From positions 21,708 to 85,707 of IMG/VR virus record IMGVR_UViG_3300009161_003648: DNA of 64,000 bases; one strand, given 5' to 3'. This stretch comes from a virus (lineage: Duplodnaviria; Caudoviricetes). Of this stretch, positions 16,027 to 46,376 are shown piece after piece (position 1 is the stretch's first letter; every line of letters begins with the position of its first letter). The notes under the pieces are model-generated. The model was not told the origin of the DNA. It made no database searches and saw only the letters and a program-made list of their open reading frames with translations. A program made the translations under genes and the position numbers.

Positions 16027-17292
16027 ATGAGTAAAATTAAAGTCTTGGTAGTACCATCTGACCGTACTGGTGTTGGATACTTTAGAAGCACAAAACCACA
16101 CATTGCGTTAGAAGAAAAATACCCAAATGAATTTCACGTAGATATTGAATACGAACCAGAGTTGAACAACGACGAATGGTTAAAACAATACGATATAATA
16201 CATTATCATAGAACCTTAGGCGCTTACGAACAACAAGAAAGCTTGTTGAATAAATTAGATAATTTAGGTATCGTAACAATAATGGACTTAGATGATTATT
16301 GGTCACCTGGTCAACATCATCCAGCTTTTTTATTAATTAAAAATAGTGGTTTAGATAAAATGATTCTAAATAATATTAGAATTGCTAAGAACGTAACAAC
16401 AACAACAAGTATATTTGCTGAAGAAATTGGAAAACATAATAAAAACGTATTTGTTTTACCAAATGCTATTGACCCAAATGAAAAACAATATACACCAACA
16501 CCAGAACCAAGTGAAAGATTAAGAATTGGATGGTTAGGTGGTTCATCACACTTAAAAGATTTAGAAATTTTAAAAGGTATTGTTGGTAGATTACATAATG
16601 ACGGACTATTAGAAAAAGTTCAATTTGTTTTGTGTGGTTATGATTTAAGAGGGACAATGACAATTATCGATGAAAAAACTGGACAACAAACACAAAGACC
16701 AATCAAACCAACAGAAAGCGTTTGGTACCATTACGAAAGAATTTTCACAGAAGATTATACAACAATTAGTCCAGAATATAAAGAATTTTTATTAAAATTC
16801 AAAAATGAGGAATATCCCAATGTTGCAAATGAACCATATAGAAGAGTTTGGACAAAACCAATTAGTACATACGCTTCAAACTATAATTTATTTGATATAT
16901 CATTAGCGCCAATTGAAGAAAATATCTTTAACAAGGTTAAGAGTCAACTTAAAGTTATTGAAGCTGGGTTTCATAAAAAAGCCCTAATTGCACAAGATTT
17001 CGGACCATATCAGATAGATATTAAAAATGCGCACCAATTTGGTGGTAGCTGGGATACTAATGGTAATGGTATTTTAATTGATACAAATAAAAACCATAAA
17101 GATTGGTATAAATTTATTAAAAAATTAATTGTTGAGCCAGAACTAGTTAAACAATTAAGTGAAAACTTACACAACACAGTTAAAAATTTATATTCTGTAC
17201 AAGCGGTTAGTGACAGCAGACGTGATTTATATAAAAAATTAAAATCACAAATGGATGAAAAACAATCAGCTAAAAAAATGGTTTTAAATTAG
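16027..17292 (+). CDS. GT-B fold glycosyltransferase (GT4-like)
   Basis: DLDDYW, VTTTT..FA, LPNAID, RIGWLGGSSH, FDISLAP...KSQLKVIEAG...IAQDFGPY. Confidence 0.85.
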   Translation: MSKIKVLVVPSDRTGVGYFRSTKPHIALEEKYPNEFHVDIEYEPELNNDEWLKQYDIIHYHRTLGAYEQQESLLNKLDNLGIVTIMDLDDYWSPGQHHPAFLLIKNSGLDKMILNNIRIAKNVTTTTSIFAEEIGKHNKNVFVLPNAIDPNEKQYTPTPEPSERLRIGWLGGSSHLKDLEILKGIVGRLHNDGLLEKVQFVLCGYDLRGTMTIIDEKTGQQTQRPIKPTESVWYHYERIFTEDYTTISPEYKEFLLKFKNEEYPNVANEPYRRVWTKPISTYASNYNLFDISLAPIEENIFNKVKSQLKVIEAGFHKKALIAQDFGPYQIDIKNAHQFGGSWDTNGNGILIDTNKNHKDWYKFIKKLIVEPELVKQLSENLHNTVKNLYSVQAVSDSRRDLYKKLKSQMDEKQSAKKMVLN

Positions 17293-17320
17293 ACTTTTTC
17301 ATTTGTTTTTGGTATATTTG
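17290..17320 (+). promoter_or_regulatory. Candidate promoter (sigma70-like / Bacteroidota -7 box)
   Basis: TAGACT-N17-TATATT; TATATTTG at 17313-17320 also matches the Bacteroidota TAnnTTTG element. Confidence 0.5.
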
Positions 17321-17328
17321 TAAAAAAT

Positions 17329-17904
17329 ATGATTATGATTAAACAAGAACAAATTGTAAAAAACACTAAAAAGTATTTCCAAACGGCTCAAGAACAAGGG
17401 TTTATGACTGAAGAGTTGATGTCTTTTTTAGGTGAAACTTTTATTAAAGCGCCTGCATCAACTATGGCCGATTTAAATAACGCATTTGAAGGTGGTTTAA
17501 TTGACCATCTTTTGCGTGTAACAAAATATGCTGTTTCAATAAATGAAACTATCCTACCAGAAAATCTTAGATTACCAAAAAAAGATATTATTAAAGTTTG
17601 CTTTTTACACCAAATTGGTAAAGCGCATCTTTATGTCCCATGCACATCCGAATGGCATATTAAAAATCAAGGTAAATTATACGAATTTAATGATGGGCTA
17701 ACATCTATGCGTGTTGGTGAACGTTCAGCTCATTACGTATTAAGTAATGGTGTTACACTCACTGAAGAAGAATACCAAGCAATTATAAATTTTGATAAGG
17801 ACGATAGTGATAAACAAGCAAAATATCACAATTCATTATTGGGTGACCTATTAAAAATGGCTAACCAATTAGCAATCATTGAAGAAAAAAATCAAAAAAA
17901 CTAA
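17329..17904 (+). CDS. HD-domain-like phosphohydrolase (HD replaced by HQ)
   Basis: AFEGGLIDHLLRV...CFLHQIGK; family pattern is GGL..H....LLHDxGK. Confidence 0.65.
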   Translation: MIMIKQEQIVKNTKKYFQTAQEQGFMTEELMSFLGETFIKAPASTMADLNNAFEGGLIDHLLRVTKYAVSINETILPENLRLPKKDIIKVCFLHQIGKAHLYVPCTSEWHIKNQGKLYEFNDGLTSMRVGERSAHYVLSNGVTLTEEEYQAIINFDKDDSDKQAKYHNSLLGDLLKMANQLAIIEEKNQKN

Positions 17905-17905
17905 T

Positions 17906-18484
17906 ATGGATATAGCTGAAAAAATGAGACAAAGGATATTTGATATAATTGACCCAAATATCGATTATACACAAGAAGATTTTGAAAAAGAATTTGGTAA
18001 TATTGATTATAGCAAAAACAATAATTCAAATTTTAAATTGAATATTAATTTTGTAAATGAATCCACAAACCCAAATCCAGAATACGCAACCGAGGGTTCA
18101 TCAGGATTTGATTTAAGGGCAAATTTACAAACCCCTATCGAAATACCTAGTGGCGATATTCAAACCATTCCAACAGGATTATATTTTGAAATTCCACAAG
18201 GTCTTGAAATTCAAGTTAGACCAAGAAGTGGTTTAGCCGCAAAAAATGGTGTAACTGTTTTAAACACACCAGGCACCGTTGATTCAGATTACCGTGGTGA
18301 AGTTAAAGTAATACTTATTAATCATGGTAATAGAATATTTACCGTTAATCATGGGGATAGAATTGCACAAGCAGTTATTGCGTCAGTAATGGGTAAAAAC
18401 GTTATTGAATTAAACAAAACTTCAAAAATTTCAAACGATACTGTTAGAGCATCTAATGGTTTTGGTAGTACTGGGTTACAATAA
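17906..18484 (+). CDS. dut: Trimeric dUTPase (likely start 17906)
   Basis: All five motifs present: SSGFDL, RPRSG, GTVDSDYRGE, GDRIAQ, RASNGFGSTG. Confidence 0.95.
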   Translation: MDIAEKMRQRIFDIIDPNIDYTQEDFEKEFGNIDYSKNNNSNFKLNINFVNESTNPNPEYATEGSSGFDLRANLQTPIEIPSGDIQTIPTGLYFEIPQGLEIQVRPRSGLAAKNGVTVLNTPGTVDSDYRGEVKVILINHGNRIFTVNHGDRIAQAVIASVMGKNVIELNKTSKISNDTVRASNGFGSTGLQ

Positions 18485-18494
18485 AATAAAAAAA

Positions 18495-19487
18495 ATGAAA
18501 TTAGATTTTAACGATTTGTTAATCGTACCAAAAGAAATAACAAATATAAATAGTCGAACTGAAATCAATCCGTACATTTTTGCGATGCTACCATTAATTA
18601 CCGCACCTATGGACACTGTTGTATCCAAAGAAAATGCGGGTTTATATATTATTAATAATATAAATGTATGCCTACCTAGAAACGTAGACTGTGATTTAGG
18701 GTTTAAAGCATATTCAATATCTCAGATGAATGATTTATTAAATTCTAATAGAGGTATTTTAGAAAATGGGTATTATTTAATTGATGTTGCTAATGGGCAT
18801 ATGGATTCGGTAATAAACATCACAAAAAAAATTAAAAAACAATATCCAATTTTAAAATTAATGGTTGGCAATGTTGCTAATCCAGAAACATATCGATTAC
18901 TGTCTGAAGCTGGTGCAGATTACGTCAGAGTTGGCATTGGCAATGGTGGTGGTTGTTTAACAACACAAAATACAGGTGTTGGGTATCCAATGGCGTCATT
19001 GATTAAAGAATGTTATGATATATCTGCAACATTAAACAACCCCGCATATATAGTTGCTGATGGTGGAATGCAAACATACAGCGACATAATTAAAGCTCTT
19101 GCATTAGGTGCTGACTATGTTATGCTTGGTAGTGTTCTAAATAAATCACTTGAATCTGCTGGTGATAATTATCTTTGGAAAAAAATAAAGGTATCACAAA
19201 CAATGGCTGAAAAAGCGTATAAACTAGGTATACCTGTTTATAAAATGTTTAGAGGTATGAGCACCAAAGAAGTTCAAAAAAAATGGGGTGCTAAAGTCAT
19301 TAAAACTTCTGAGGGTGTTGTAAGATATCGAAGAGTAGAATACACCTTATCTCAATGGTCCGAAAACTTTGAACATTACTTACGTTCAGCAATGAGCTAT
19401 ACAGGTTCACACAAACTAAGCGAATTTATCGGTAAAGCAAACTTAATACAAATAACAAATAACTCATATAAAAGATTTAACAAATGA
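18495..19487 (+). CDS. guaC: IMP dehydrogenase / GMP reductase family, no CBS domains (likely start 18495)
   Basis: FNDLLIVP, LITAPMDTV, LIDVANGH, VGNVA, VGIGNGGGCLTT (catalytic Cys), IVADGG, ALALGADYVMLG, FRGM, SEG, LRSAMSYTG; GuaC versus GuaB not resolved. Confidence 0.85.
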   Translation: MKLDFNDLLIVPKEITNINSRTEINPYIFAMLPLITAPMDTVVSKENAGLYIINNINVCLPRNVDCDLGFKAYSISQMNDLLNSNRGILENGYYLIDVANGHMDSVINITKKIKKQYPILKLMVGNVANPETYRLLSEAGADYVRVGIGNGGGCLTTQNTGVGYPMASLIKECYDISATLNNPAYIVADGGMQTYSDIIKALALGADYVMLGSVLNKSLESAGDNYLWKKIKVSQTMAEKAYKLGIPVYKMFRGMSTKEVQKKWGAKVIKTSEGVVRYRRVEYTLSQWSENFEHYLRSAMSYTGSHKLSEFIGKANLIQITNNSYKRFNK

Positions 19488-20947
19488 TAACAGTAGTATA
19501 TTGTACTAGAAACTCAAACCCTAAACACACAGAACATATTATTAAAATGTCTGGTTTAGGTAAACACATTGAAGTGATTGAAATTATAAATAATGGTGAA
19601 TCACTAACAAAATGTTATAACCGTGGATTAAAAGCTGCGAAAAACGATATTGTTGTATTTATGCACGACGATGTAATAATTGAAACTTCTGCTTGGGGTA
19701 GTAAAGTTATCAAACATTTTGAAAGCAACCCAGAATTTGGAATACTTGGTGTTGCTGGAACAACAGATATGCCATTAAGTGGCAGATGGTGGGAAGACAG
19801 AACGAAAATGGTTGGTATTGTTAACCACGAAAACGAAGGGAAAAAATGGGAGTCAAAATACTCTAAGAATTGGGCCAATGATATTGTAGAAGTACTTTCT
19901 GTTGATGGATTATTTTTTGCTGTTCATAAAAATAGAATTAAAAATAATTTTGATGAGAATGTGGAAGGGTTCCACTTTTATGAAATTGATTTTGTATTCT
20001 CTAACTACTTAGCTGGTGTTAAAGTTGGTGTTCTTTTTAATGTACGATTAACCCACAAGTCAATCGGTATGACAAATGAACAATGGGAAGAAAATAGACT
20101 TAACTTTGTTAAAAAATTTAATGATGATTTACCAGAAAAATTTGTACCAGCAACTTATCAGCCAAAAGAATCGAATAATAAAAATACAAAGGTTGGCGTT
20201 AAAATTGTGATACAATCACATGGTGATGTTAAGGTTTTTGAAACACTATATAATAAAATTAAATCTTTTAATTATCCTAATTTAACGATTTTTTTAATTA
20301 CAATCGAAAACTCATATGATAGATTTAAAGATTTAAATTATGAAGGTGTTAAAATTTATGAAGGGTTTTATGATAGCTTACCAAAAAATTTATCAATATT
20401 AAAATTTGAAGATGATTTTGTAACTAGCGACGACGATTTGATTTTTTTTATGAATGATGGTGTTGACATTATAAATAATATATTCTTAAGCTTTGCAAAA
20501 ATTTACGGAATAAATAAAAACACCTTTGGTTGTGGGTTTCCTTTATCTTACAATCAAAATAACACAGTTTTTTGTTCTAGCTTAGAAATATTTGTGAATA
20601 AAGAAGGTAAAGTTGCGATTAATATGAAAGATAGCAACACATATTACAATGTTTATTATGGTAATATATTAAATAGTTTTGGTAATCTTGCTGATTGTTT
20701 TGTAACAACATACACCAACTTAAAATCTTTAGATTGGTTTAAATTAAATTATGACACACCACTGTACTTTAATGAATTTTCGCTTAGATTATCACTGAAA
20801 AATAAATTGACTTATAACGATACCAATTCATTAACTGTTCAAAAATCTTTTTTGGGTGAATCACATATCCAACAAGATTTTCAAAATCTTATTAATTTTG
20901 TTAGTACGGATGATAAATTAAAAGCATTAGTTAAAAATATAGAATGA
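19484..20947 (+). CDS. Two-domain GT-A (GT2-like) glycosyltransferase
   Basis: YNRGL..AKNDIVVFMHDDV, GILGVAG, VDGLFFA, FDE...FHFYEIDF; the second half looks like a degenerate GT-A domain. Confidence 0.8.
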   Translation: MITVVYCTRNSNPKHTEHIIKMSGLGKHIEVIEIINNGESLTKCYNRGLKAAKNDIVVFMHDDVIIETSAWGSKVIKHFESNPEFGILGVAGTTDMPLSGRWWEDRTKMVGIVNHENEGKKWESKYSKNWANDIVEVLSVDGLFFAVHKNRIKNNFDENVEGFHFYEIDFVFSNYLAGVKVGVLFNVRLTHKSIGMTNEQWEENRLNFVKKFNDDLPEKFVPATYQPKESNNKNTKVGVKIVIQSHGDVKVFETLYNKIKSFNYPNLTIFLITIENSYDRFKDLNYEGVKIYEGFYDSLPKNLSILKFEDDFVTSDDDLIFFMNDGVDIINNIFLSFAKIYGINKNTFGCGFPLSYNQNNTVFCSSLEIFVNKEGKVAINMKDSNTYYNVYYGNILNSFGNLADCFVTTYTNLKSLDWFKLNYDTPLYFNEFSLRLSLKNKLTYNDTNSLTVQKSFLGESHIQQDFQNLINFVSTDDKLKALVKNIE

Positions 20948-21726
20948 TAAAGATAGTTTCTGGTTATACAAATAAAGGTGGGTCGACAATTGCATTTATT
21001 AACTTAACAAATGCTTTAAATAATGCTGGTTACGATTGTACACTTTATGGACCACACGAATGGCATTTAGACAAGTGTAAATCTGGTTTATTAAACCAGT
21101 TGTCTTTTGATAAAAATGATAGTGTTATATCACATTATTTAAATTTAGAACAAAGACCAGACGTAAAAAAAATTGTTTTATCGTGTCATGAAAAATGGTG
21201 GTTTAGCTTTAGTAAAACTAATAGATACTTTGATAGTGCAGTTTTTTTACATGAAGCGCACAGAAATTTTCATTCAGATTACTATGGTGATTATGTTATA
21301 ATACCAAATCTAAAAGAAAATTTAATACCAAAAGAAAAACCAGAATTAGATTTAGTTGCAGGTATAGTTGGCTCTATTGAAGATAGAAAACAAACACATG
21401 TTTCTATACAAAGAGCGATGAAAGATAAATGTAAAAAAATATACCTATTTGGTTCAATAAACGAAGAAGATTATTTCAACAACTACGTTAAACCATTATT
21501 AAATCCAAAAATAGAAATGCTTGGCCATACAACAAATAAACAAGAAATGTATGACATGATTGGTAGAGTATATCATTCATCAAAAGGGGAAGTTGCTTGC
21601 TTAGTTAAAGACGAGTGTTATCTAACAAATACAAAGTTTTTTGGTAATGAAGAAACTGAAAATGAAGTCTCAACATTAACCAATGAAGAAATAATAACAC
21701 TATGGAAAAAAACACTTGATTTATGA
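20944..21726 (+). CDS. GT-B-like glycosyltransferase
   Basis: GGST.AF.NL, GIVGSIEDRKQTH, VYHSSKGEVACLVKDEC. Confidence 0.6.
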   Translation: MIKIVSGYTNKGGSTIAFINLTNALNNAGYDCTLYGPHEWHLDKCKSGLLNQLSFDKNDSVISHYLNLEQRPDVKKIVLSCHEKWWFSFSKTNRYFDSAVFLHEAHRNFHSDYYGDYVIIPNLKENLIPKEKPELDLVAGIVGSIEDRKQTHVSIQRAMKDKCKKIYLFGSINEEDYFNNYVKPLLNPKIEMLGHTTNKQEMYDMIGRVYHSSKGEVACLVKDECYLTNTKFFGNEETENEVSTLTNEEIITLWKKTLDL

Positions 21727-22268
21727 GAAAAATTTTTATAGATGGCGGTGCAAGGATTGGAGAATCAATACAAGAACTATTGGATAAAAGAGAAGACTTA
21801 CAAGGTTGTGACGTATATCTTTTTGAATGTAATTCTGACCATCATAAAACACTTAATGATATTAAAGAAAACAATAAAAATTATAATTTTATTGTTAGAG
21901 AAGAAGCCCTGTGGAATAAAAATGGTGAACAATCATTTTATATATCCGTTGACCAATGGGGTGATTTAGGTTGTACATTAGATTCTAGCAAACGTGAAAA
22001 ACTTGATTTACAAAACCCTAGAACTGTTAAGACTTTAAGATTATCAGACTTTTTAGATGAGTTTAATGATGATGACTATATTGTTTTAAAATTAGATATT
22101 GAAGGTGGTGAGTACAAAGTTATTACTGATTTAATAAATACCGATAAAATCAAAAAGATTGATGAATTATTTGTTGAATGGCATGACCATTTTTTTAATA
22201 TGTCATCGCAACCATTAAAAAATGCTTTATCACAATATAATATAAAAGTTAACCATAATTGGATGTAA
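21723..22268 (+). CDS. FkbM-family SAM methyltransferase
   Basis: FIDGGARIG, VYLFEC, EALWNKNG, VLKLDIEGGE, LFVEWH. Confidence 0.85.
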   Translation: MRKIFIDGGARIGESIQELLDKREDLQGCDVYLFECNSDHHKTLNDIKENNKNYNFIVREEALWNKNGEQSFYISVDQWGDLGCTLDSSKREKLDLQNPRTVKTLRLSDFLDEFNDDDYIVLKLDIEGGEYKVITDLINTDKIKKIDELFVEWHDHFFNMSSQPLKNALSQYNIKVNHNWM

Positions 22269-22269
22269 T

Positions 22270-22992
22270 ATGAACATACACGCACACATACTTTCTTGGA
22301 ATGAAGAAAAAATATTACCATATACGTTAGACCATTATTCTAATATCTGCAGTAAAATTTTTATACACGATAATATGTCAACCGATAGTTCTGATGAGAT
22401 ATATAAAAAATATCCAAAGGTTACAGTATTAAAATGGGACAGTGGCAATGAAATCAATGAACTTAATTACACAAAAATAAAATCAGAGTCATATAAACAA
22501 TATAGCAGAGGCGAGGATGTTGATTGGGTTATTGTATGTGATTGTGATGAATTTTTATATCACGAAAATTTAATTGAAAAACTAAAAGAATATAAATCTA
22601 TTGGTGTTACTGTTCCAAGGATAGATGGACACGATATGGTTTCAGAAACTTTTCCCGACTACGATGGAATCCCATTAACAGAAAAAGTTAAAATTGGTTC
22701 AGATACTTATGGCCCAATGTGTAAGAATATTATCTTTAGCCCTAAGTTAGATGTACAATACGGTATTGGTGGTCATAGCTTTGGCTCAAATGGTACAGTA
22801 TACTCTGATTCTGCAGATTTAAAATTATTACACTATAAATTTTTGGGTAAAGATTACGTTAAACGAGCATATGTTGCTAGAGCTAAAAGATTATCATCAT
22901 TTAACAAACAACATAAATTTGGTGAACACTATTTTAATTTACCCTTTGAATATATGGATAACATGTTATCAGAAAAAAGACAAGTCATATGA
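22270..22992 (+). CDS. GT2-like glycosyltransferase
   Basis: WNEEKILP, IHDNMSTDSS, WVIVCDCDEF, LLHYKFLG. Confidence 0.8.
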   Translation: MNIHAHILSWNEEKILPYTLDHYSNICSKIFIHDNMSTDSSDEIYKKYPKVTVLKWDSGNEINELNYTKIKSESYKQYSRGEDVDWVIVCDCDEFLYHENLIEKLKEYKSIGVTVPRIDGHDMVSETFPDYDGIPLTEKVKIGSDTYGPMCKNIIFSPKLDVQYGIGGHSFGSNGTVYSDSADLKLLHYKFLGKDYVKRAYVARAKRLSSFNKQHKFGEHYFNLPFEYMDNMLSEKRQVI

Positions 22993-23813
22993 GAAAAATA
23001 TTAGTTTCTGATTTTACAACTAAAGAAGCGCCTCATGGTGGTTCAGAATGGGTTAACGAAGTTTTAATTAAGAAATTTAATTTAGAATTTGAATATTCGT
23101 CCCAGTTACAATCGTGGGATACGGAAAACTTTTATATAATTTCAAACATTTCATTGATGAACCCAACGTTAGTTAGAGAAATACCAAAGTTAAATTATAT
23201 AATTATTGAAAACGATTATAAAATATGCGAGAGTAGACACCCGTGGCGATATCCAAATTCAATAGTACCAAAAAACCAAAGAATAAACTACGATATTTAC
23301 AAAAATGCTAAAGCGGTATTTGTTCAAACGACAGACCATTTTAATGTATATAAAGCAAATGAGGTTGAGGGTAATTTTATAAATTTAAATTGCTCAATAT
23401 GGTCTGACGAAGATTTAGAAATGTTAAATAATTTTTTAATGAACAAACCAACAAAAAATGGTAAGACCGCTGTTTATTATACTAACAACTGGATAAAAAA
23501 TAGTGAAGGTGCTATTAAATATTGTAACGACAATGGATTAACACCTGAACTTATTGAAAACAATCCAAATAGACAAGATTTTTTAGACAAATTATCTAGT
23601 TGCTCACAATTAGTTTTTTTACCCATTGCTAGAGAAACTTTTTGTCGGTTAGTTGTTGAGGCTAAATGCATGGGGTTAGAAGTGATAACAACTAAAAATT
23701 ATGGTGCGTCTTTAGAAACTTGGTTTGATATGAAAGGTGCTGACATGCTTAAATTTTTAAGGTTTAAAACTGATAAGAATATAACAACCATAGGTCAATA
23801 TATAAATTTTTAA
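22989..23813 (+). CDS. GT-B-like glycosyltransferase
   Basis: HGGSE, LVFLP..RETFCRLVVEAKCMGLEVIT (GT4-type E-x7-E motif). Confidence 0.7.
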   Translation: MRKILVSDFTTKEAPHGGSEWVNEVLIKKFNLEFEYSSQLQSWDTENFYIISNISLMNPTLVREIPKLNYIIIENDYKICESRHPWRYPNSIVPKNQRINYDIYKNAKAVFVQTTDHFNVYKANEVEGNFINLNCSIWSDEDLEMLNNFLMNKPTKNGKTAVYYTNNWIKNSEGAIKYCNDNGLTPELIENNPNRQDFLDKLSSCSQLVFLPIARETFCRLVVEAKCMGLEVITTKNYGASLETWFDMKGADMLKFLRFKTDKNITTIGQYINF

Positions 23814-26213: not shown

Positions 26214-26214
26214 T

Positions 26215-31983: not shown

Positions 31984-32013
31984 CTTTTTTTTATTATTTT
32001 TTAAACAAAAACT

Positions 32014-32739: not shown

Positions 32740-32740
32740 C

Positions 32741-33421: not shown

Positions 33422-33711
33422 AAGTTATTTACGTTGATATAGATGAGACTATATGTGAAACACCAGAACCAAGAAATTATTTTAATGCGAAACCAATATA
33501 CGAAAATATTTCTAAAATAAATAAATTATACGATGAAGGTAATACAATCGTATATTGGACGGCTAGAGGTAGCAGAACCCAAATAAATTGGTATGAATTA
33601 ACAAAAAAACAACTAATTGAATGGGGCGCAAAACATCATGAACTAAATGTTAGCAAACCGTATTATGATTTATTTATTGACGATAAAACAATTAGAATAG
33701 AAGAAATATGA
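33418..33711 (+). CDS. Small HAD-like phosphatase
   Basis: YVDIDET (motif I), YWTARG, KP.YDLFIDDK. Confidence 0.8.
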   Translation: MKVIYVDIDETICETPEPRNYFNAKPIYENISKINKLYDEGNTIVYWTARGSRTQINWYELTKKQLIEWGAKHHELNVSKPYYDLFIDDKTIRIEEI

Positions 33712-34199: not shown

Positions 34200-34202
34200 A
34201 AT

Positions 34203-35093: not shown

Positions 35094-35105
35094 AAACACA
35101 TACAC

Positions 35106-35708: not shown

Positions 35709-35710
35709 AT

Positions 35711-36247: not shown

Positions 36248-36252
36248 AAATT

Positions 36253-38396: not shown

Positions 38397-38399
38397 ATT

Positions 38400-38999
38400 A
38401 TGGAACATTGGTTAATTGATGAAGCAAATTATTTTAATACAATTAAAGACAATTGTAATATTATTTTTGACATTGGTGCGTCTTATTCACCATATGTTGA
38501 ATACCCACAAGAAGTACACTATTTTGACCCACAACCATCAGTTATTGAAAACCTAAAACAATTACCGAATAATAATATTAAAAGTTTTTTTAATGAGTTT
38601 GGTTTGAGCGATGAAGAAGCTATATTGCCATTTTATAGATACGGTGATTTTGTAACCGTTACGGAATATAAAATGGGTGATTTTAAATTAAAAGTTGGTA
38701 AAGACTATATGGTAGAAAATAATTTAACAAAAATTGATTTTTTAAAAATTGATGTTGAAGGTTTTGAATTAAAGGTTTTAAAAGGTTTTGGTGAATATCT
38801 TAATAATGTTAAATATATTCAATTTGAATACGGTACTGGCTTAAGAGATGCTGGTTCAAATTTATCAGAAGTTGTAACATATTTAAAATCTTTTGGTTTT
38901 GATAATTTTAGTATAATAAATTCAGGTGTTATTCTTACTGATTATACTGATAATTGGCAATTATGTAATATTGCGTGTATTAATAAAAAATTGGTTTAA
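38400..38999 (+). CDS. FkbM-family SAM methyltransferase
   Basis: IFDIGA, IDFLKIDVEGFE..VLKG, YIQFEYG. Confidence 0.85.
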   Translation: MEHWLIDEANYFNTIKDNCNIIFDIGASYSPYVEYPQEVHYFDPQPSVIENLKQLPNNNIKSFFNEFGLSDEEAILPFYRYGDFVTVTEYKMGDFKLKVGKDYMVENNLTKIDFLKIDVEGFELKVLKGFGEYLNNVKYIQFEYGTGLRDAGSNLSEVVTYLKSFGFDNFSIINSGVILTDYTDNWQLCNIACINKKLV

Positions 39000-39008
39000 A
39001 AATATATT

Positions 39009-39911
39009 ATGAATAAATTATTAGTAACAGGGGCAAATGGATTAGTCGGCTCTGCAATTAATGCCGATGTAAAGATTGGTAAAGAATACGATTTACGAGA
39101 CGCTAATGCGACAAATAAATTGTTTTTAGAACATAAACCAACACATGTAATTCATTGTGCTGGTAAAGTTGGCGGTCTTGGCGGTAACATGAATTTCAAG
39201 GGTGAATATTTCTATGACAATATTATGATTAATACAAATGTTATAGAGTCGGCAAGAAAAAACGGTGTTGAAAAATTAGTATCGTTTTTGTCGACTTGTA
39301 TTTTCCCAAATAATATTGAATACCCATTGACAGAATCGAAAATACATTTAGGTGAACCTAATTATACAAACTACCCATATGCTTATGCAAAAAGAATGGC
39401 CGACATTCAAATAAGAGCGTATCGTGAACAATACGGTATTAAATATACGTCTGTTATTCCAACCAATATTTATGGGCCAAATGATAAATTTTCATTAGAG
39501 CAAGGTCACGTTGTTCCGATGTTAATACATAAACTTTATTTATCATTAATGAACAATACTGATTTTATTGTTTGGGGGTCTGGAAAACCATTAAGAGAAT
39601 TTATTTATTCAAAAGATGTCGCTAAATTAGCTGAATGGGCAATTTATAATTATGATGAATCAGAACCAATAATTTTTAGTACATCAGAAGAAATTAGTAT
39701 TGTTGATTTGGTTGATTTATTAGTTAAAGAATTTAACTACAAGGGTAGGGTGATATTCGATTCAACCAAACCAGATGGACAATTAAGAAAACCATCTGAT
39801 AATAGCAAATTAAAAAAATATTTACCTAACTTTGAGTTCACGCCTATAGAAATTGGGATTAAAGAAACCGTTAACTGGTTTTTAGAAAATTATGAAACAA
39901 TAAGAAAATAA
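39009..39911 (+). CDS. fcl: GDP-L-fucose synthase / GDP-colitose synthase (epimerase-reductase)
   Basis: TGANGLVG, AGKVGG..GN, LSTCIFP, YAYAK, TNIYGPND, HVVPMLI, WGSGKPLREF. Confidence 0.9.
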   Translation: MNKLLVTGANGLVGSAINADVKIGKEYDLRDANATNKLFLEHKPTHVIHCAGKVGGLGGNMNFKGEYFYDNIMINTNVIESARKNGVEKLVSFLSTCIFPNNIEYPLTESKIHLGEPNYTNYPYAYAKRMADIQIRAYREQYGIKYTSVIPTNIYGPNDKFSLEQGHVVPMLIHKLYLSLMNNTDFIVWGSGKPLREFIYSKDVAKLAEWAIYNYDESEPIIFSTSEEISIVDLVDLLVKEFNYKGRVIFDSTKPDGQLRKPSDNSKLKKYLPNFEFTPIEIGIKETVNWFLENYETIRK

Positions 39912-39963
39912 AATTAAATAATAAAAAAAATTTTATTAATTATAACAGGCAAAATTTTTAGAA

Positions 39964-41541
39964 ATGTACGATAATATACAATTAATAATACCAATGTCTG
40001 GGGTTGGAAAAAGATTTATTGAATCTGGATATACAACACCAAAACCATTAATTGAAGTTGATAAAAAACCAATAATAGAACATGTTGTAAATTTGTTCCC
40101 AAATGTAAAAGATATTACATTTATATGTAATAAAAAACATTTAAATGAAACAAACATGCGTGAAATATTATTATCTATTGCACCGTCTTGTAAAATTATT
40201 GAAGTTCCAAATGAAAATAGACGCGGACCCGTAGATGCTGTTTGTCAAATAATCGATAATATTGACGAAAATAAAGAAACAATTATTAGTTATTGTGATT
40301 ATGGTACATATTGGAATTTTGATAAGTTTATTGAAACCGCTAGAAAAGGCGATTATCAAGGTTCAATATCTTGCTATAGGGGTTTTCATCCACATATGTT
40401 AGGTTCTGATAATTATGCTTTTTGTAAAGAAGAAAATAAAGAACTTATACAGATAAAAGAAAAAGAAGCATTTACCGATAACAAAATGAATGAATTTGCT
40501 TCAAACGGTACGTATTATTTTAAAAGTGGTTCAATCGTAAAAAAATACTTTAAAGAATTAATTGATTTAGACATTAATTTAAACGGTGAATATTATGTTA
40601 GTTTAGTTTATAATTTATTGGTAAAAGATAACTTAAAAGTTAATATTTTTGAAATTGAAAATATGTTACAATGGGGTACACCGTATGATTTAGAAGTTTA
40701 TAAAGGTTGGTCAAATTATTTTAATAAGGTAAATAATAAAAATACAACTAAACATTCTTATGAATATGATGTAACAATGATTTTACCAATGGCTGGTAGA
40801 GGTAGTAGATTTACAACTGACGGATACGAATTACCAAAACCATTAATTAATATTGATGGAAAACCAATGGTGGTACAAGCAATCAATAATTTACCTAAAA
40901 CAAAAGACCATATTTTTATTTGTTTAGACGAACACATTAACGAACACGCAATAGATGAAATTTTAAAAAACGAATACCCAAAATCAAAAATTGTTTCTTT
41001 AGATAAAACAACTGAAGGACAAGCATGTACATGTGAAATTGGTATGTTAGAAACAAATATTGATTTAGAAAAACCAATTTTAATTTCAGCATGCGATAAC
41101 GGTGTTTTATATAATGAAGATAAATTTAATGAACTATATTTAGACGAATCTATCGATGTTATTGTTTGGTCTTTTAGAAACAATCAGACTAGCAAAGTAA
41201 ACCCAAATATGTACGCTTGGTTAGACGTTGATAAAAATGACTTTATTAAATATGTTTCATGTAAAAATTTTATATATGATGACCCATTAAAAACACACGC
41301 AATTATTGGTACAATGTTTTTTAGAAAAGGTAAATATTTTATAGATAATTTAAAATTAAATTACGAAAAAAATATAAGGGTTAATAATGAATTTTATGTT
41401 GATGACGTATTAAATCGTTGTATTGAAAACAATTTAAAAGTTAAGGTTTTTGAGGTTGAAAACTATATTTGTTGGGGCACACCAGACGATTATAAAACAT
41501 ACAATTATTGGAAAGATTATTTTAACAAAATTAAAAAATAA
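39964..41541 (+). CDS. Tandem two-domain NDP-sugar nucleotidyltransferase
   Basis: Two copies of the signature: IPMSGVGKRF..GY..PKPLI and LPMAGRGSRF..GY..PKPLI; each ends in WGTP.D. Confidence 0.85.
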   Translation: MYDNIQLIIPMSGVGKRFIESGYTTPKPLIEVDKKPIIEHVVNLFPNVKDITFICNKKHLNETNMREILLSIAPSCKIIEVPNENRRGPVDAVCQIIDNIDENKETIISYCDYGTYWNFDKFIETARKGDYQGSISCYRGFHPHMLGSDNYAFCKEENKELIQIKEKEAFTDNKMNEFASNGTYYFKSGSIVKKYFKELIDLDINLNGEYYVSLVYNLLVKDNLKVNIFEIENMLQWGTPYDLEVYKGWSNYFNKVNNKNTTKHSYEYDVTMILPMAGRGSRFTTDGYELPKPLINIDGKPMVVQAINNLPKTKDHIFICLDEHINEHAIDEILKNEYPKSKIVSLDKTTEGQACTCEIGMLETNIDLEKPILISACDNGVLYNEDKFNELYLDESIDVIVWSFRNNQTSKVNPNMYAWLDVDKNDFIKYVSCKNFIYDDPLKTHAIIGTMFFRKGKYFIDNLKLNYEKNIRVNNEFYVDDVLNRCIENNLKVKVFEVENYICWGTPDDYKTYNYWKDYFNKIKK

Positions 41542-41547
41542 AAAAAA

Positions 41548-42531
41548 ATGGATAAAAAAATTGGATTAATTATTGGTGCCAACGGGCAAGATGCATCATA
41601 CTTAGCTGAATTTTTGATTGAAAAAGATTATATTGTTCATGGAACAATAAGAAGAAATTCAGTACCTGAATCACAAACAACAAGAATTCAACATTTACAC
41701 AATACACAAGCTATATCATTACACTATATGGATTTAACAGACCCACTTAGTGTTGAGAAAATTATAAGTGATATTAAACCAGATGAAATATATCATCTTG
41801 CGGCGCAAAGTCATGTACAAATAAGTTTTGAGTTACCAAAATACACTTTAGATGTTAATGCTGGTGGTACATTAGCAATACTTGAGGCTGTTAGAAAGTT
41901 TTCACCTAATTCAAAAGTTTATCACGCGGCAACCTCAGAAATGTTTGGTAATGCATGTGATACGGATGGGTATCAAAGAGAAACAACACCTATGATGCCT
42001 GTATCACCATATGGTTGTAGTAAACTATATGCACATACTCTTTGTCATAATTATAGAAATGCTTACGATTTATTTATCTGTTCTGGAATTTTGTTCAATC
42101 ACGAAAGCCCAAGAAGAGGTATTAATTTTGTCACAAATAAAGTAGTTTTAGAAGCGGTAAAAATAAAATTAGGGTTATCAAATGAATTAGTTTTAGGTAA
42201 TTTAAGCTCAATGAGAGATTGGGGTCATGCTAAGGATTATATCAAAGGAATGTGGTTAATGTTACAACAAGAGACACCAGATGACTACGTATTGGCTACT
42301 GGAATATCTAAAAGTGTAAATGAATTAATCGATTATGTTTTTAACAAATTGGAATTAAATCGTGAAAAGTATGTAAAAACTGATAAAAAATTTGAAAGGG
42401 CGGAAGAATTAAATTATTTAAGAGGTGATGCTAGCAAAGCGATTACCAAACTAGGCTGGAAATATGAATATACCTTTGAATTAATGATGGATGAAATGAT
42501 TAATTATTGGCTTGAAAAATTAAAAAAATAA
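41548..42531 (+). CDS. gmd: GDP-mannose 4,6-dehydratase
   Basis: GANGQDASYL, LAAQSHVQISF, TSEMFG, PVSPYGCSK, GILFNHESPRRG..FVT.K, RDWGHAKDY. Confidence 0.95.
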   Translation: MDKKIGLIIGANGQDASYLAEFLIEKDYIVHGTIRRNSVPESQTTRIQHLHNTQAISLHYMDLTDPLSVEKIISDIKPDEIYHLAAQSHVQISFELPKYTLDVNAGGTLAILEAVRKFSPNSKVYHAATSEMFGNACDTDGYQRETTPMMPVSPYGCSKLYAHTLCHNYRNAYDLFICSGILFNHESPRRGINFVTNKVVLEAVKIKLGLSNELVLGNLSSMRDWGHAKDYIKGMWLMLQQETPDDYVLATGISKSVNELIDYVFNKLELNREKYVKTDKKFERAEELNYLRGDASKAITKLGWKYEYTFELMMDEMINYWLEKLKK

Positions 42532-42568
42532 TAAATCGGTTATATTAAGATATTTATTGTTAAAATAC

Positions 42569-43435
42569 ATGAACAAAAAAACCACAGATAGAAAACCAAA
42601 AACAAGAAGAAATGCCGATATTGAACTATCGGCATTTTCTGAATCTAACGGTGAAACAACCCCAAAAAAAGAAGTTTTATCAACAATAAGACTTGAAATA
42701 AAACATAAAAACGAAACACAAAAAAAGTTAACACAAGCAATAAAAAAGAACGATGTTACAATATGTGCTGGTCCCGCTGGTACAGGAAAAACCCTACTTA
42801 GTGTATTTGAGGCGTTGTTATTATTGAAAACCTATCCAGAAATATATAAAGAAATCAAGTTGGTTAAATCAATAACACAACTTAAAAATGAAGACCTTGG
42901 TATACTGCCTGGCGATGAGAAAGAAAAAATGAAATTTCTTATGATGTCTTATTTAGACGCTTTTTATAAAATTATTGGTGAGGGTCTTACAAATAGACTA
43001 ATTGATTCTGGATTAATTAAAATGGAGGTCTTTGGCGCTATACGTGGTAGGTCTTTTACAAATTGTATTATATTAATTGATGAATTTCAGAACATTAACC
43101 ACGATAATGCAAAAACATTCCTAACTAGATTTTCAGACGATACTAAGGTTATTGTTTTAGGTGATACGGGACAAATTGATTTAAAAAATAAAAAAGATAG
43201 TTCATTAGAAAGGCTAATTGAAAGAGTAAAATCAACACCAATTGACGGTGTTGGGGTTATTGAATTTAACGAATCTGAAACAGTTAGGCATAGACTTACT
43301 AGCTACTTTATTAATGTATTTAAAGAACCAGAACAACCCAAACCGCAACCACAACAAAATAAAAAAAATACAAAAAAATCTATTTTTAAAAGTTTTATCG
43401 ATTTATTTAAAAATAACTTGACTTTATTCTTATAA
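42569..43435 (+). CDS. phoH: PhoH-family ATPase (likely start 42569)
   Basis: GPAGTGKT, LGILPGD..EK, IRGRSF, IDEFQN, LTR...KVIVLGD..QID, VRH. Confidence 0.9.
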   Translation: MNKKTTDRKPKTRRNADIELSAFSESNGETTPKKEVLSTIRLEIKHKNETQKKLTQAIKKNDVTICAGPAGTGKTLLSVFEALLLLKTYPEIYKEIKLVKSITQLKNEDLGILPGDEKEKMKFLMMSYLDAFYKIIGEGLTNRLIDSGLIKMEVFGAIRGRSFTNCIILIDEFQNINHDNAKTFLTRFSDDTKVIVLGDTGQIDLKNKKDSSLERLIERVKSTPIDGVGVIEFNESETVRHRLTSYFINVFKEPEQPKPQPQQNKKNTKKSIFKSFIDLFKNNLTLFL

Positions 43436-43445
43436 TTGCTATTAT
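43418..43445 (+). promoter_or_regulatory. Sigma70-like promoter
   Basis: TTGACT-N16-TATTAT upstream of 43452. Confidence 0.55.
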
Positions 43446-43451
43446 TCTACC

Positions 43452-44054
43452 ATGAATATAGGTATATCAATAAATGAAGTTTTAAGAGATTTTTTAGGTC
43501 AGTTATTATACACATATGACAAGTATATTGAAAAAACTGATATTAAAGAAACAGAAATTACTAGTCTAAACTTAACAGAATTTTTAAAATTCGAAAACGT
43601 AGACGAATGTAATAAGTTTCTATATTTAGAAGCACCCCTAGAAATCTTTGGCCATGCAGATTTAAAATTTGATGGCGTAATGGCTCACTTTAATAATCTT
43701 TTAATGGATATTAAAGACGAGGAAGAACACCAAATTATTTTGGTTAGTAAAGAAATAAATAAAAGTATTCCATCAACATTTTTCTTTTTATCTAAAACTG
43801 GATGCAGGGCCGAAAAAATAAATTTTGTTCAAAATGCAATGAACGAATGGGACAATGTTGATTTACTAATTACCGCCAACCCAGATGCGCTTAAAAATAA
43901 ACCAAACGGAAAAATCAGTGTAAAGGTTAAAGCGCCATACAACGAAAATGTATCTGCCGATTACGAAATCGATTCTATTTTAGATTTTATTAAAGACCAA
44001 GAATTAAGAGATAAAATCATAAATTCAAAAATAACAACTTACGAAGAAATTTAA
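43452..44054 (+). CDS. Degenerate HAD / 5'(3')-deoxyribonucleotidase-like protein
   Basis: IGISINEVLRDF resembles GxDxDGVLRDF but lacks the catalytic Asp pair; C-terminal PYNE motif. Confidence 0.5.
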   Translation: MNIGISINEVLRDFLGQLLYTYDKYIEKTDIKETEITSLNLTEFLKFENVDECNKFLYLEAPLEIFGHADLKFDGVMAHFNNLLMDIKDEEEHQIILVSKEINKSIPSTFFFLSKTGCRAEKINFVQNAMNEWDNVDLLITANPDALKNKPNGKISVKVKAPYNENVSADYEIDSILDFIKDQELRDKIINSKITTYEEI

Positions 44055-44057
44055 ACT

Positions 44058-44417
44058 ATGTTAGAATTTGGAGACTCAGTCTTTTATATAGACTTAAAAG
44101 CTTTTGATAAAGCCATTACAATTATTGACGGCAAAAACCCAGAAGACTTAAATGTTGAAACAGAAACAAAAACAACACTAAATGAAAAAGGTGAGGTTTT
44201 AATGAGCGAAATATTTCAACGAACAAGTCAAAGAGGTAAAGAAATTGATGCAACAAAATATGATTTACTTAAAACATTCATTGAGTATATTATAGATTAC
44301 GAAGACGAAAGCGACGATACACTAGGTGCCGATAGAGCTTTATCTCAATCACCTCTAGGATATAAAATAGTATTTAATACCTTATTAAAGGAAAACATAT
44401 TAAAAGAAAAACCATAA
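44058..44417 (+). CDS. Hypothetical protein
   Basis: 119 aa acidic ORF in the operon. Confidence 0.5.
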   Translation: MLEFGDSVFYIDLKAFDKAITIIDGKNPEDLNVETETKTTLNEKGEVLMSEIFQRTSQRGKEIDATKYDLLKTFIEYIIDYEDESDDTLGADRALSQSPLGYKIVFNTLLKENILKEKP

Positions 44418-44441
44418 TAAAAAATAAAAATAAAAAAACAA

Positions 44442-45563
44442 ATGGTAGACGAAAAAACAAAACAAGTTAATGAAATTATTGAGAAATTAGACAAAAAAGA
44501 TTTTAGTCTATATTTTTTCACACTTGACACAAAGGGTAACCCAACTGCAGGTATTGCAAACATTTACGAACACGTTAAAGTATTAAACGAATTGGGTTAC
44601 AATGCAAAAATTTTGCATGAGAAAAATGATTATAAATTAAAAGGTGATGAATCTGGCATGGGTATTGCCGATTGGTTAGGTGAAGAATACGCTGCGTTAC
44701 CACACGCATCTATTGAAAACCAAAATTTAAATGTTTCACCAGCTGATTTTATTGTAATTCCAGAAATATTCCCAACACTAATGGACCAAATTAAAGGGTT
44801 TCCGTGTAGAAAAATTGTATTGTCTCAGTGTTATGATTATTTATTGGACCTTTTACCAATCGGTAAAAGATGGGAAACCGATTATGGTTTTGGGCATGTA
44901 ATTACAACTAGTGATAAACAAGCTAATTACCTAAAAAGTCTTTTCCCAGCAATTAAAACACACACAGTACCTGTATCAATCCCTAGTTATTTTAAACAAA
45001 ATGAAAAACCAAAAATTCCTGTAATCGCAATCTTAACAAGAAACCAAGGCGATGCAGCTAAGCTGGCTAAATCATTTTATTTGCAATACCCTATCTACAA
45101 ATGGGTTAGCTTTAAAGAATTAAGAGGCCTATCTAGACAACAATTTGCGGATGAATTATCTAAATGTTGTTTAGCTGTTTGGGTTGATGACAATTCTGGA
45201 TTTGGAACATTCCCAATTGAATCAATGGAATGTGGTACGCCAGTTATTGGTAAAATACCAAACATGGTTCCAGAATGGATGGAAACAATTGACGAAACTG
45301 GAAACCAAATTATTAATAATAATGGGGTTTGGACAAATACAACAATTAATATCCCTGAATTGATTGCAACATATATGAAAGTTTGGTTTGAGGACTCAGT
45401 ACCATCAGAACTAATGGAATCAATAAAAAAATCTACAGGGTTATATACACCTGAAAAACAAAGACAAGCAATTGAAAGTGTATACGCTAAATTGATTGCG
45501 GAAAGAAAAGAAGAATTTAATAACATTTTAAAAGCTCAAGAAGCTGTAACAGAAAACAAATAA
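44442..45563 (+). CDS. GT-B-like glycosyltransferase
   Basis: IYEHVKVL..LGY.A, FIVIPE, FGTFPIESMECGTPVIG. Confidence 0.75.
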   Translation: MVDEKTKQVNEIIEKLDKKDFSLYFFTLDTKGNPTAGIANIYEHVKVLNELGYNAKILHEKNDYKLKGDESGMGIADWLGEEYAALPHASIENQNLNVSPADFIVIPEIFPTLMDQIKGFPCRKIVLSQCYDYLLDLLPIGKRWETDYGFGHVITTSDKQANYLKSLFPAIKTHTVPVSIPSYFKQNEKPKIPVIAILTRNQGDAAKLAKSFYLQYPIYKWVSFKELRGLSRQQFADELSKCCLAVWVDDNSGFGTFPIESMECGTPVIGKIPNMVPEWMETIDETGNQIINNNGVWTNTTINIPELIATYMKVWFEDSVPSELMESIKKSTGLYTPEKQRQAIESVYAKLIAERKEEFNNILKAQEAVTENK

Positions 45564-45572
45564 TTTAAAAAT

Positions 45573-46376
45573 ATGGAAAAAAATAAATCAAACATTTCAG
45601 TAATTCTACCAGTACACGAATTAACAGAAGAAACAAAACCAATGTTTTTAAACGCCGTAAAAAGCGTTGAACAACAAACAGTAACACCTGACGAATTACT
45701 TATTGTAATTCCAAAAGGAAGTGATGTTGCTAAGTATCTTAAAACAGTAGATTTTGGTGAAATAAAAAGTATTGTATCTATCCATGAAAATGACGGAGAA
45801 ACTGATTTTGCTAGCCAAGTAAATTTTGGTGCATCTAAAGCAAAATCTGAATGGATTTCACTTTTAGAATTGGATGACGAATATTCTAGCATTTGGTTTA
45901 AAAATGTTGTTGAGTACAGAAAGACTCATCCAAATGTTGAACTTTTCATGCCACTTGTTGTTGACGTTGATTCAAATGGTTCTTTTATTGGTTTTACTAA
46001 TGAAGCTGTTTGGGCCACAGGTTTTTCAGATGAGTTAGGTGTATTAGATTTGAATGCTTTATTAATGTACCAGAATTTTAATATTGATGGTATCGTTGTT
46101 AAAAAATCTACATTTGAAACTTATGGTGGATTTAAACCTAGTATTAAATTAACATTTATTTATGAGTTCTTATTAAGAATGACATTTAAAGATGTTAAAG
46201 TTATGACAATCCCTAGATTCGGATACAAACACGTAAATCAAAGACCTGGTTCTTTATTTGATAGCTATAAAAATACAATTGACCCAGCCGAAGCAAGATG
46301 GTGGTTAAGTCAAGCAAAAAAAGAATATTATTTTGAAAAAGACAGGAAAATAACATATGAAACACAAAAAGTGTAA
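45573..46376 (+). CDS. GT2-family glycosyltransferase
   Basis: ISVILPV, A..SV..Q, VNFGA..AKSEWISLLELDDE, EFLLRM. Confidence 0.85.
   Translation: MEKNKSNISVILPVHELTEETKPMFLNAVKSVEQQTVTPDELLIVIPKGSDVAKYLKTVDFGEIKSIVSIHENDGETDFASQVNFGASKAKSEWISLLELDDEYSSIWFKNVVEYRKTHPNVELFMPLVVDVDSNGSFIGFTNEAVWATGFSDELGVLDLNALLMYQNFNIDGIVVKKSTFETYGGFKPSIKLTFIYEFLLRMTFKDVKVMTIPRFGYKHVNQRPGSLFDSYKNTIDPAEARWWLSQAKKEYYFEKDRKITYETQKV

Follow-up and report, generated by a model that had tools for sequence, protein, structure and literature searches.

A lineage-conserved, membrane-free glycan-assembly locus with two variable slots in large T4-like phages

The window analyzed here is a 64,000-nucleotide stretch of viral DNA (positions 21,708 to 85,707 of IMG/VR record IMGVR_UViG_3300009161_003648) that harbors an island of glycan-biosynthesis genes at positions 16027-46376. 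Judged from its genes and those of its relatives, the region is a lineage-conserved, fully soluble glycan-assembly locus of a large T4-like phage. A core of four predicted glycosyltransferases (GTs) is fixed in the backbone beside the structural genes, and two slots carry strain-specific cassettes. Newly described are this core-plus-two-slot architecture, the lineage-wide absence of membrane parts, a ColD-type colitose route together with a split thiamine pyrophosphate (TPP) enzyme in this phage context, and synteny to cultured cyanophages. Genes are named below by the window position at which they start.

Organization of the island

The island comprises 36 open reading frames (ORFs), all on the + strand, tightly packed and mostly with overlapping stop and start codons. 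It lies between tail-fibre genes and baseplate/head genes, within the morphogenetic region, and the co-oriented block of about 30 kb described by the original prediction, which was made from the DNA letters alone, is thereby upheld. The conserved backbone was delineated with 12 related IMG/VR contigs, extended over the equivalent region and compared with the window gene by gene. The GT genes 16027, 44442 and 45573 and the gene of a sigma-like protein each occur in 12 of the 12 relatives. An HD-like gene, a dUTPase, an IMPDH/GMPR-like gene, the GT gene 19484, gene 23816, PhoH, a HAD-like gene and 44058 are kept in most of them, and baseplate-hub-like genes come after the sigma-like protein.

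Two hypervariable slots interrupt this backbone. Slot A (20944-23813) lies between 19484 and 23816, and slot B (24733-42531, 17.8 kb) between 23816 and PhoH. Relative G006 has 24733-28921, 30514-33708, 38400 and 39964 at 54-89% identity and lacks the block of GT11-like, TPP, short-chain dehydrogenase/reductase (SDR) and ColD genes as well as Fcl and GDP-mannose 4,6-dehydratase (Gmd). Gmd sits in slot A of G008 and G009, and G002 has nearly no cassette. A synteny check for hypervariability had been proposed at the outset; across the 12 relatives it bears out the expectation, for these two slots. Their content is uniform in kind: the 25 commonest of the 77 Pfam families found in the relatives' slots (96 ORFs tallied) are glycan enzymes only, and the families present include GT2, GT11, GT6, GT7N, GT-D, FkbM, CmcI, Gmd, DegT, UDP-GlcNAc 2-epimerase and hexapeptide acyltransferases.

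Within the island 10 GTs are supported, one is weak (22989) and four to five GT-sized ORFs have no assignment (20944, 28181, 28921 and 29688 among them); the earlier figure of about 13 GT-like ORFs is a fair estimate, not a count. At least eight ORFs are non-glycan genes (17329, 17879, 18456, 23816, 42557, 43452, 44058 and the kinase part of 30514). The locus is real, with the correction that not every gene in the interval serves glycan synthesis.

The core glycosyltransferases

Core GT 1 (16027..17292, + strand) is a GT4-like protein of predicted GT-B fold (phrog_7162, 132 bits), with homologues at 45-72% identity in 12/12 relatives. The AlphaFold2 (AF2) model has a mean confidence (pLDDT) of 91.3 and its best Foldseek matches are GlgM, MshA, PglA and BshA (E 1e-14 to 1e-11); a PDB profile search gave no match. 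Core GT 2 (19484..20947, +) combines an N-terminal GT-A domain (PF13712, Glyco_tranf_2_5, 109 bits) with a C-terminal half of ~270 aa that has no assignment, and is found in 10 of the 12 relatives. Core GT 4 (45573..46376, +), a predicted GT-A enzyme of the GT2 type with an invariant DD motif, is again present in all 12.

Core GT 3 (44442..45563, +) is a GT-B protein with homologues in 12/12 relatives. Positions 40-342 of a profile built from 16 homologues match PDB entry 8xsg with E 2.7e-15, whereas other GT4 structures reach no better than E 0.016. Entry 8XSG is AmGGT, a GT4 α-1,6-glucosyltransferase of the Agt/AmGGT family (PMC12159676). By this profile match 44442 is specifically related to that family, at a low level of identity to AmGGT/Agt (26 bits with the single sequence, 60 bits with the profile). 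Among GenBank phages no homologue of 44442 was found.

Several further homologues of 16027 were encountered. At 23-25% identity they occur in phi92-like (Justusliebigvirus), Phapecoctavirus, Klebsiella and Campylobacter phages, several of these records having two matching places, and a 36% homologue lies in a 735-kb uncultured megaphage (LR756501). The homologue in G011 (contig 45960-47171) has one in-frame TAG; a sequencing error, pseudogene status and stop-codon recoding in that phage are all conceivable.

Absence of membrane components and integrity of the assembly

Membrane spans were sought by a hydropathy scan only (Kyte-Doolittle, 19-residue mean of 1.6). None was found in the 36 island ORFs, only short ORFs embedded in other frames reaching the peak value, and the earlier observation that the island has no multi-pass membrane protein therefore holds. 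The same is true of the relatives: 0 of 110 slot ORFs have two or more spans, and no Wzx/Wzy-type multi-pass ORF is present anywhere in the complete relative G001. For a priming transferase, a flippase or ABC transporter, a polymerase and a ligase there is neither a multi-pass ORF nor a corresponding Pfam family among the matches listed. By the hydropathy scan and these matches the island does not have the make-up of a Wzx/Wzy- or ABC-dependent O-antigen or capsule locus. All-soluble enzymes fit a machinery of the virion-glycosylation type, but the trait is common to O-antigen GTs and is hence non-discriminating.

The GC content of the cassettes (25-29%) is below that of the flanks (30-37%), as it might be if a bacterial polysaccharide locus had been mis-assembled into a phage contig. 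The chance of such an artefact is negligible. In 12 independent contigs variable cassettes stand between the same backbone genes, cassette genes of the window recur in G006 at the corresponding place, and gene packing and strand are continuous; the tetranucleotide correlation between cassette and backbone is 0.6-0.87, compared with 0.03-0.45 for unrelated loci. A mis-assembled bacterial fragment, named at the outset as a way in which the prediction could fail, is ruled out by the shared synteny and the tetranucleotide signature.

The sugar-nucleotide pathway

The distal part of slot B contains the enzymes of a deoxy-sugar route. Gene 37236 (37236..38396, +) encodes a ColD-type GDP-4-keto-6-deoxymannose 3-dehydratase whose best PDB match is E. 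coli ColD (2gms, 234 bits). The catalytic His that replaces the pyridoxal phosphate (PLP) lysine is kept, GHHIST aligning to SHHIAT, and the entry of the H188N mutant (3b8x) identifies this His; on these residues the ColD assignment is firm. The adjoining segment (38400..42531, +) carries an FkbM methyltransferase (38400), an Fcl/ColC-like reductase (39009), a tandem sugar-1-phosphate nucleotidyltransferase (39964) and Gmd (41548). Gmd scores 376.6 bits against TIGR01472 (cut-off 415) and 375 bits against PF16363, and 39009 scores 235 bits against the GDP-L-fucose synthase model, below the cut-off of 500, so that ColC and Fcl both fit. As read from these matches, the Gmd/ColD/ColC-like set is a GDP-colitose-type 3,6-dideoxyhexose route in which the ColC step is a candidate.

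Upstream of ColD lie a split TPP enzyme, consisting of an E1 α-like part (35106, 200 aa) and an E1 β-like part (35711, 178 aa), and an extended SDR (36253), together spanning 35106..37239 (+). Partners of the E2/E3 kind are absent from the window, and the TPP pair with the SDR is a candidate for branched-chain or keto-sugar chemistry. The nucleotide-sugar enzymes first predicted for the island are represented by Gmd, ColD, the Fcl/ColC-like reductase, the SDR, the tandem nucleotidyltransferase, the E1-like TPP pair and a class II aldolase.

Among bacteria, the nearest homologues of ColD, SDR and Gmd are 52-63% identical and come from a metagenome-assembled genome (MAG), in which they form part of a low-GC locus. 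On contig CAZCJR010000003.1 of this 'Cellvibrionaceae' MAG (7149-9449 of the stretch examined) the locus has 24% GC, the SDR is 61% and ColD 63% identical. The same locus contains a 766-aa Gmd ORF with two homologous halves ~400 aa apart, and the extra part may be an intein or an inserted domain. The sole capsid-like match of the MAG is remote (23% identity) and on a different contig. A scan of genome contigs with ColD was dominated by Pelagibacter matches of 35-38%, probably owing to AT-rich peptide patterns, and was discarded as a host clue. Literature searches on colitose in phages and on hypervariable lipopolysaccharide (LPS) clusters of P-SSM2 returned nothing usable.

Other cassette genes

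Slot A (20944..23813, +) holds ORF 20944, an FkbM methyltransferase (21723), a GT2_4 protein (22270, PF13704) and a weak GT-B-like protein (22989). Except for 20944, which is found in G003, none of these genes was found in the 12 relatives, where other genes occupy the slot. Slot B opens with a run of GTs (24733..30512, +): 24733 (phrog_14945), 25389 (GT2_4, PF13704), 26194 (GT2_2-like, PF10111 below the curated cut-off) and 26955 (GT61), followed within the same segment by three ORFs of 250-274 aa with no assignment (28181, 28921 and 29688, all +). This run is shared only with G006, at 54-68% identity, 24733 also occurring in G010. The family of 28181 (28181-28933) has 168 homologues in metagenomes, part of them from contigs of 331-343 kb, and no Pfam domain; its conserved HDIDILL is DxD-like and may be the DxD of a GT-A-like enzyme. 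A PDB profile search with this family found no sequence relative. An all-against-all phmmer comparison detected no paralogy for 20944, 22989, 28181, 28921, 29688 or 34203, and a permissive Pfam search added nothing.

A putative sugar-activation module with no assigned pathway follows (30514..34199, +), consisting of a PRK/uridine-kinase-like fusion (30514), a TylF O-methyltransferase (32014), a class II aldolase/epimerase (32741), a HAD-like protein (33418) and a phrog_34507 protein (33708). It is shared with G006 at 60-89% identity. Next to it, 34203..35093 (+) is a lead for a GT11-like transferase. It has no Pfam match; its ESM Atlas features are 0.95-0.97 similar to clusters partly carrying PF01531, the nearest of which are mostly from Nucleocytoviricota. 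The number of methyltransferases predicted at the outset, three, is correct, and all are O-methyltransferases: FkbM at 21723 and 38400, and TylF at 32014.

Regulatory signals

The first GT gene is preceded by an intrinsic terminator (15942-15965) and then a sigma70-like promoter, TTGACT-N16-TATAAT (15970-15997), both on the + strand (15942..15997). A terminator and TTTAC(A/T)-N16/17-TATA(C/A)T are kept 5' of the 16027 homologues in G001, G003, G006, G015 and G011. The overall scan for the sigma70 consensus did not rise above chance, and only this conserved site before 16027 is used here. A second motif class, TATATTTG(T/C)A, occurs 5' of 17329 and of several of its homologues.

The structural genes show a different signal. 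The late-type motif ATATTTAT / ATATTTA(T) is found in the window at 12262, 13535, 13550, 42550, 50691, 54602, 58695 and 60816, lying 7-25 nt upstream of structural-gene starts. In the relatives it lies 20-28 nt upstream of the homologues of 50711 (10/12) and of the prohead protease (8/12). It also precedes PhoH, in the window (42550) and in 3 of 11 relatives, and was not found directly before 16027, 19484, 23816, 44442 or 45573 in the relatives. This distribution makes ATATTTAT the probable late promoter of the lineage, a counterpart of TATAAATA in T4. For the cassette enzymes early or middle expression is probable, with possible late transcription of the distal core GTs as well. Just past the island end, the sigma70-region-2-like protein (46377..47105, +; PF04542, E 4e-4, below cut-off; 12/12 relatives) is a possible, weak candidate for a late transcription factor.

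Phage lineage and neighboring genes

The flanks of the island identify the window as T4-like myovirus DNA, with genes for a gp23-type major capsid protein (MCP), a portal, a prohead protease, a terminase and tail fibres. The gp23-type MCP (phrog_138), prohead protease, portal and a terminase fragment occupy 53.8-64 kb on the - strand, and tail-fibre and baseplate-wedge-like genes, including a 2072-aa structural protein, occupy 1-13.5 kb. Among GenBank phages no near match to the window was found. The capsid protein is at most 43% identical to that of any GenBank phage, the best matches (38-43%) being Microcystis phage Mel-JY01, Flavobacterium 'immuto' phages and uncultured huge phages (records LR756508 and LR756511). 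In IMG/VR, by comparison, the 622-aa capsid protein has at least 598 relatives, which are 55-79% identical. Relative G001 is a complete 345-kb genome with terminal repeats, and G002 a 363-kb record rated 100% complete. Kinship to these two makes 'jumbo' status plausible for the phage of the window, whose own record is known only to at least 85.7 kb. The distance from the MCP to 16027 is 38.6 kb in the window, the largest seen, and 18.7-33.2 kb in the relatives.

The MCP had been proposed as a glycan acceptor for its enlarged, Ser/Thr-rich insertion. Within the MCP (window 54664-56532) the insertion domain (residues ~101-375) is real and hypervariable, with a column conservation of 0.27-0.65 compared with 0.85-0.97 in the HK97-like core (80 relatives), but the enrichment in Ser/Thr is mild (~20% vs ~12% in the core).

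Several backbone genes of the island belong to other functions. An HD-like phosphohydrolase (17329), a dUTPase (17879) and an IMPDH/GMP-reductase-like protein (18456), assigned by Pfam/PHROG matches to nucleotide metabolism, lie at 17329..19487 (+), and PhoH (42557), a HAD/NT5C-like protein (43452) and ORF 44058 follow the late-type promoter-like motif at 42550..44417 (+). Between the two slots, 23816..24730 (+) encodes a non-GT protein with a coiled/helical N-terminus and a β-domain, with homologues in 9/12 relatives. It has no Pfam, PHROG or PDB sequence match, and an Atlas search gave noise. Its AF2 model (pLDDT 69) has weak similarity to tail-tube, Hcp and neck proteins (Foldseek E ~0.01-0.05, VIA-align Z 5.3-5.9), and the product could be a structural protein or even the glycan acceptor.

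The acceptor of the glycan

An acceptor borne by the phage is slightly favoured, and virion proteins are a credible target, though short of a probable one. The core enzymes would start and extend a glycan on a lineage-conserved acceptor, most simply the phage's own virion proteins, which are made in the same cytoplasm. A variable, methylated, deoxy-sugar-rich outer part would be added by the cassette enzymes, so that each strain would have a surface 'serotype' of its own, as is the case for chloroviruses, mimiviruses and some mycobacteriophages. The enzymes would be made early or in mid-infection from host-type promoters, the distal core GTs lying also behind a late-type promoter. Several findings point to a phage-borne acceptor. 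The core GTs are 38-73% identical across phages whose MCPs are 56-79% identical, and G006 shares cassette genes with the window but not the distal fibre proteins 2403 and 8627, so that cassette and fibre are not linked; the core is thus conserved despite divergent capsids and differing distal fibres, even where cassettes match. No cassette comes with a flippase, polymerase or ligase, and the locus lies inside the morphogenetic region. The five-gene module shared with Synechococcus phage Bellamy indicates that modules circulate among phages of very different hosts. Finally, 44442 is kin to Agt/AmGGT, and ApAgt elongates protein-linked glucose in the cytoplasm (PMC12159676).

Other findings weigh against virion proteins. 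No enzyme of proven specificity for a protein acceptor turned up: the initiating protein GTs, GT41/NGT and Maf, were not found in five relatives, and the core GTs have generic GT-A or GT-B folds. The GT11, GT6 and GT2 families and colitose are classic features of LPS and O-antigen. GTs of O-antigen synthesis are normally soluble, so the missing membrane genes are compatible with the use of the host's undecaprenyl phosphate carrier, flippase and ligase. The nearest bacterial ColD, SDR and Gmd homologues belong to a bacterial locus. The cassette and the first core GT stand behind sigma70-like or other non-late promoters, a timing that fits either target. AmGGT itself refuses glycopeptides and prefers free oligosaccharides, and analogous cyanophage clusters are conventionally taken as host-surface modification (PMC12159676; PMC12801897). 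Of the virion glycosylation system originally predicted, a soluble, membrane-free, phage-resident line for a complex methylated deoxy-sugar glycan is supported, and virion proteins are a candidate acceptor.

Several of these points speak for remodelling of the host surface, a somewhat unlikely but serious alternative, in which soluble phage GTs would act at the inner face of the membrane on undecaprenyl-linked O-antigen, lipooligosaccharide (LOS) or capsule intermediates of the host. Such a process would depend on a priming transferase, flippase, polymerase and ligase supplied by the host and would change the surface of the infected cell, with superinfection exclusion, less loss of progeny on debris or altered recognition by grazers as the outcome. 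O-antigen loci typically contain GT11, GT6, GT2, colitose, Gmd and DegT genes, the low-GC mosaic cassettes resemble such loci, the closest bacterial ColD, SDR and Gmd homologues are those of the bacterial MAG locus, and the sigma70-like promoter before the island suggests early expression; host-surface modification is also the usual reading of the P-SSM2, S-SCSM1 and S-SCSM2R clusters (PMC12801897). If the acceptors were host-specific and lipid-linked, four core GTs would nevertheless not be expected to persist throughout a lineage whose fibres diverge and whose hosts presumably differ. A new repeat unit normally needs a matching Wzx/Wzy, and no flippase, polymerase, ligase or priming transferase is present in any cassette or in the complete relative examined, G001; one module is common to a cyanophage of an unrelated host, and the membrane Gtr or O-acetyltransferase proteins of known phage seroconversion were not found here. 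The expression timing of the cassette fits virion, host-surface and DNA targets alike and does not discriminate between them.

The glycan could also be built on another cytoplasmic acceptor, such as a free oligosaccharide, a glycolipid, a small molecule, a host protein or a non-virion phage protein, and serve as a decoy, metabolic sink or defence inhibitor. Core GT 16027 is as close to small-molecule GTs (MshA, BshA, GlgM, TreT) as to protein or lipid GTs, AmGGT uses free oligosaccharides, and at least five ORFs have no assignment. This is unlikely: 10-15 GTs and three methyltransferases imply a large defined heteroglycan, and such hypervariability between strains points to a surface that is exposed and under selection, not to an internal metabolite. 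Glycosylation of hydroxymethylated pyrimidines against restriction, as in T-even phages and 5mYOX/TET systems, is very improbable. Multi-sugar DNA glycans are known (bioRxiv 10.1101/2023.12.21.572611), the core GTs are interleaved with dUTPase, HD hydrolase, NT5C-like and IMPDH/GMPR-like genes, and 16027 has homologues of no known role in phi92-like and other phages. In the complete relatives G001 and G002, however, no route to 5-hydroxymethylpyrimidine (a hydroxymethylase, or a C5-methylase with Tet/JBP) was found: a search for Tet/JBP (PF12851), made without a positive control, and one for C5-cytosine methylase (PF00145) were negative, and the sole thymidylate-synthase homologue of each is a canonical ThyA (315-330 bits to PF00303, best PDB matches E. 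coli ThyA). Known DNA glycans fall far short of what this many GTs, O-methyltransferases and 3,6-dideoxy and branched sugars would make, and the genomes assemble normally from metagenomes.

A full proposal with virion proteins as acceptor is tentative: a widespread lineage of ~350-kb T4-like aquatic phages might use cytoplasmic enzymes of its own to cover the virion with O-antigen-like glycans that differ between strains and contain colitose, O-methyl and possibly branched sugars, the core GTs priming a conserved virion protein and the cassettes being exchanged, including with cyanophages. If the virion is the target, these would be phages with a giant-virus-like, self-encoded surface 'serotype', which would matter for how hosts are recognized, for decoy binding, and for grazing and immune recognition. 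If the host envelope is the target, the locus would be a membrane-protein-free hijack of the host O-antigen machinery.

Comparison with known systems

Like the colitose loci of E. coli O55/O111 type, the window has Gmd, ColD with the catalytic His, a ColC/Fcl-like reductase, a GT11-like transferase and a low-GC mosaic. In contrast to O-antigen/LOS loci, it lacks wzx, wzy, wzz, waaL and a priming transferase, sits in the phage structural region, and has extra O-methyltransferases and the TPP enzyme. Its link to the Actinobacillus NGT/Agt system is 44442, a sequence relative of AmGGT/Agt, of which ApAgt elongates Asn-linked glucose on adhesins in the cytoplasm; no NGT (GT41) was found in five relatives of the window.

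In chlorovirus PBCV-1 and the Mimiviridae, virus-encoded soluble GTs, sugar-nucleotide enzymes and methyltransferases build strain-variable capsid or fibril glycans in the cytoplasm or virus factory, without lipid carriers. Mycobacteriophages use 1-3 GTs, compared with 10-15 in the window, and glycosylation of their virions was reportedly described by Freeman et al. in 2023 (as cited in PMC12619734). The proposed likeness to all three systems is one of logic, and the only sequence link is the Atlas match of 34203 to Nucleocytoviricota.

The 'Moraphages' are large phages from aquatic metagenomes (200-307 kb) that are only remotely related to T4 and to Lak phages. Their core genome has four putative GT orthogroups, for which DNA, host serotype and virion have been considered as targets, and cassettes were not described (Perez-Hernandez et al., 2025, PMC12619734). 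The lineage of the window likewise has four core GTs, its relatives being 345-363 kb, and the Moraphages may be the same or a neighboring lineage.

The closest parallel is found in the cyanomyoviruses. Sugar-chain gene clusters have been known in big T4-like phages since the first cyanomyovirus genomes; to our knowledge their target has never been established. By its gene content the island is a further case of this kind, the multi-GT glycan clusters of large T4-like cyanomyoviruses: it lies in a phage genome, its GTs and NDP-sugar enzymes are co-oriented, and it has synteny with cyanophages. The Kyanoviridae P-SSM2, S-SM2, S-SCSM1, S-SCSM2R, Bellamy and ACG-2014f have, like the window, long co-oriented runs of GT, SDR, aminotransferase-family, nucleotidyltransferase, kinase, aldolase and methyltransferase genes. 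S-SM2 carries a GT61-like gene and ACG-2014f a DegT/ColD-like gene, and S-SCSM2R is reported to carry 13 GTs and 22 genes of cell-wall type, homologues of which occur in P-SSM2 and S-SCSM1 (PMC12801897). In Synechococcus phage Bellamy (MF351863; 12434-16523 of the stretch examined) genes 209-213, a putative sugar-activation set with a GT61-like gene, match 39964, 26955, 32741, 33418 and 33708 at 39-62% identity. Gene 209 aligns with 39964 over its full length (46%), and the aldolase, HAD and 33708-like genes keep the order of the window (42-62%). The co-oriented cluster of Bellamy spans at least 23 kb, and in a 29-kb stretch there every ORF has at most one predicted membrane span. The novelty claimed for an export-free island was therefore overstated, comparable membrane-free clusters of at least 23 kb being present in cultured cyanomyoviruses such as Bellamy.

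The window differs from the cyanomyoviruses in its lineage (MCP at most 43% identical to any GenBank phage), in the position of the locus between tail-fibre and baseplate/head genes, in its core and two slots, and in having the ColD-type colitose route and the split TPP enzyme. To the known kind it adds three testable points: a four-GT core with two cassettes, the lack of any membrane or export component across 13 phages, and module synteny with cultured Synechococcus phages, of which the cultivable Bellamy and S-SM2 make the question of the glycan target approachable.

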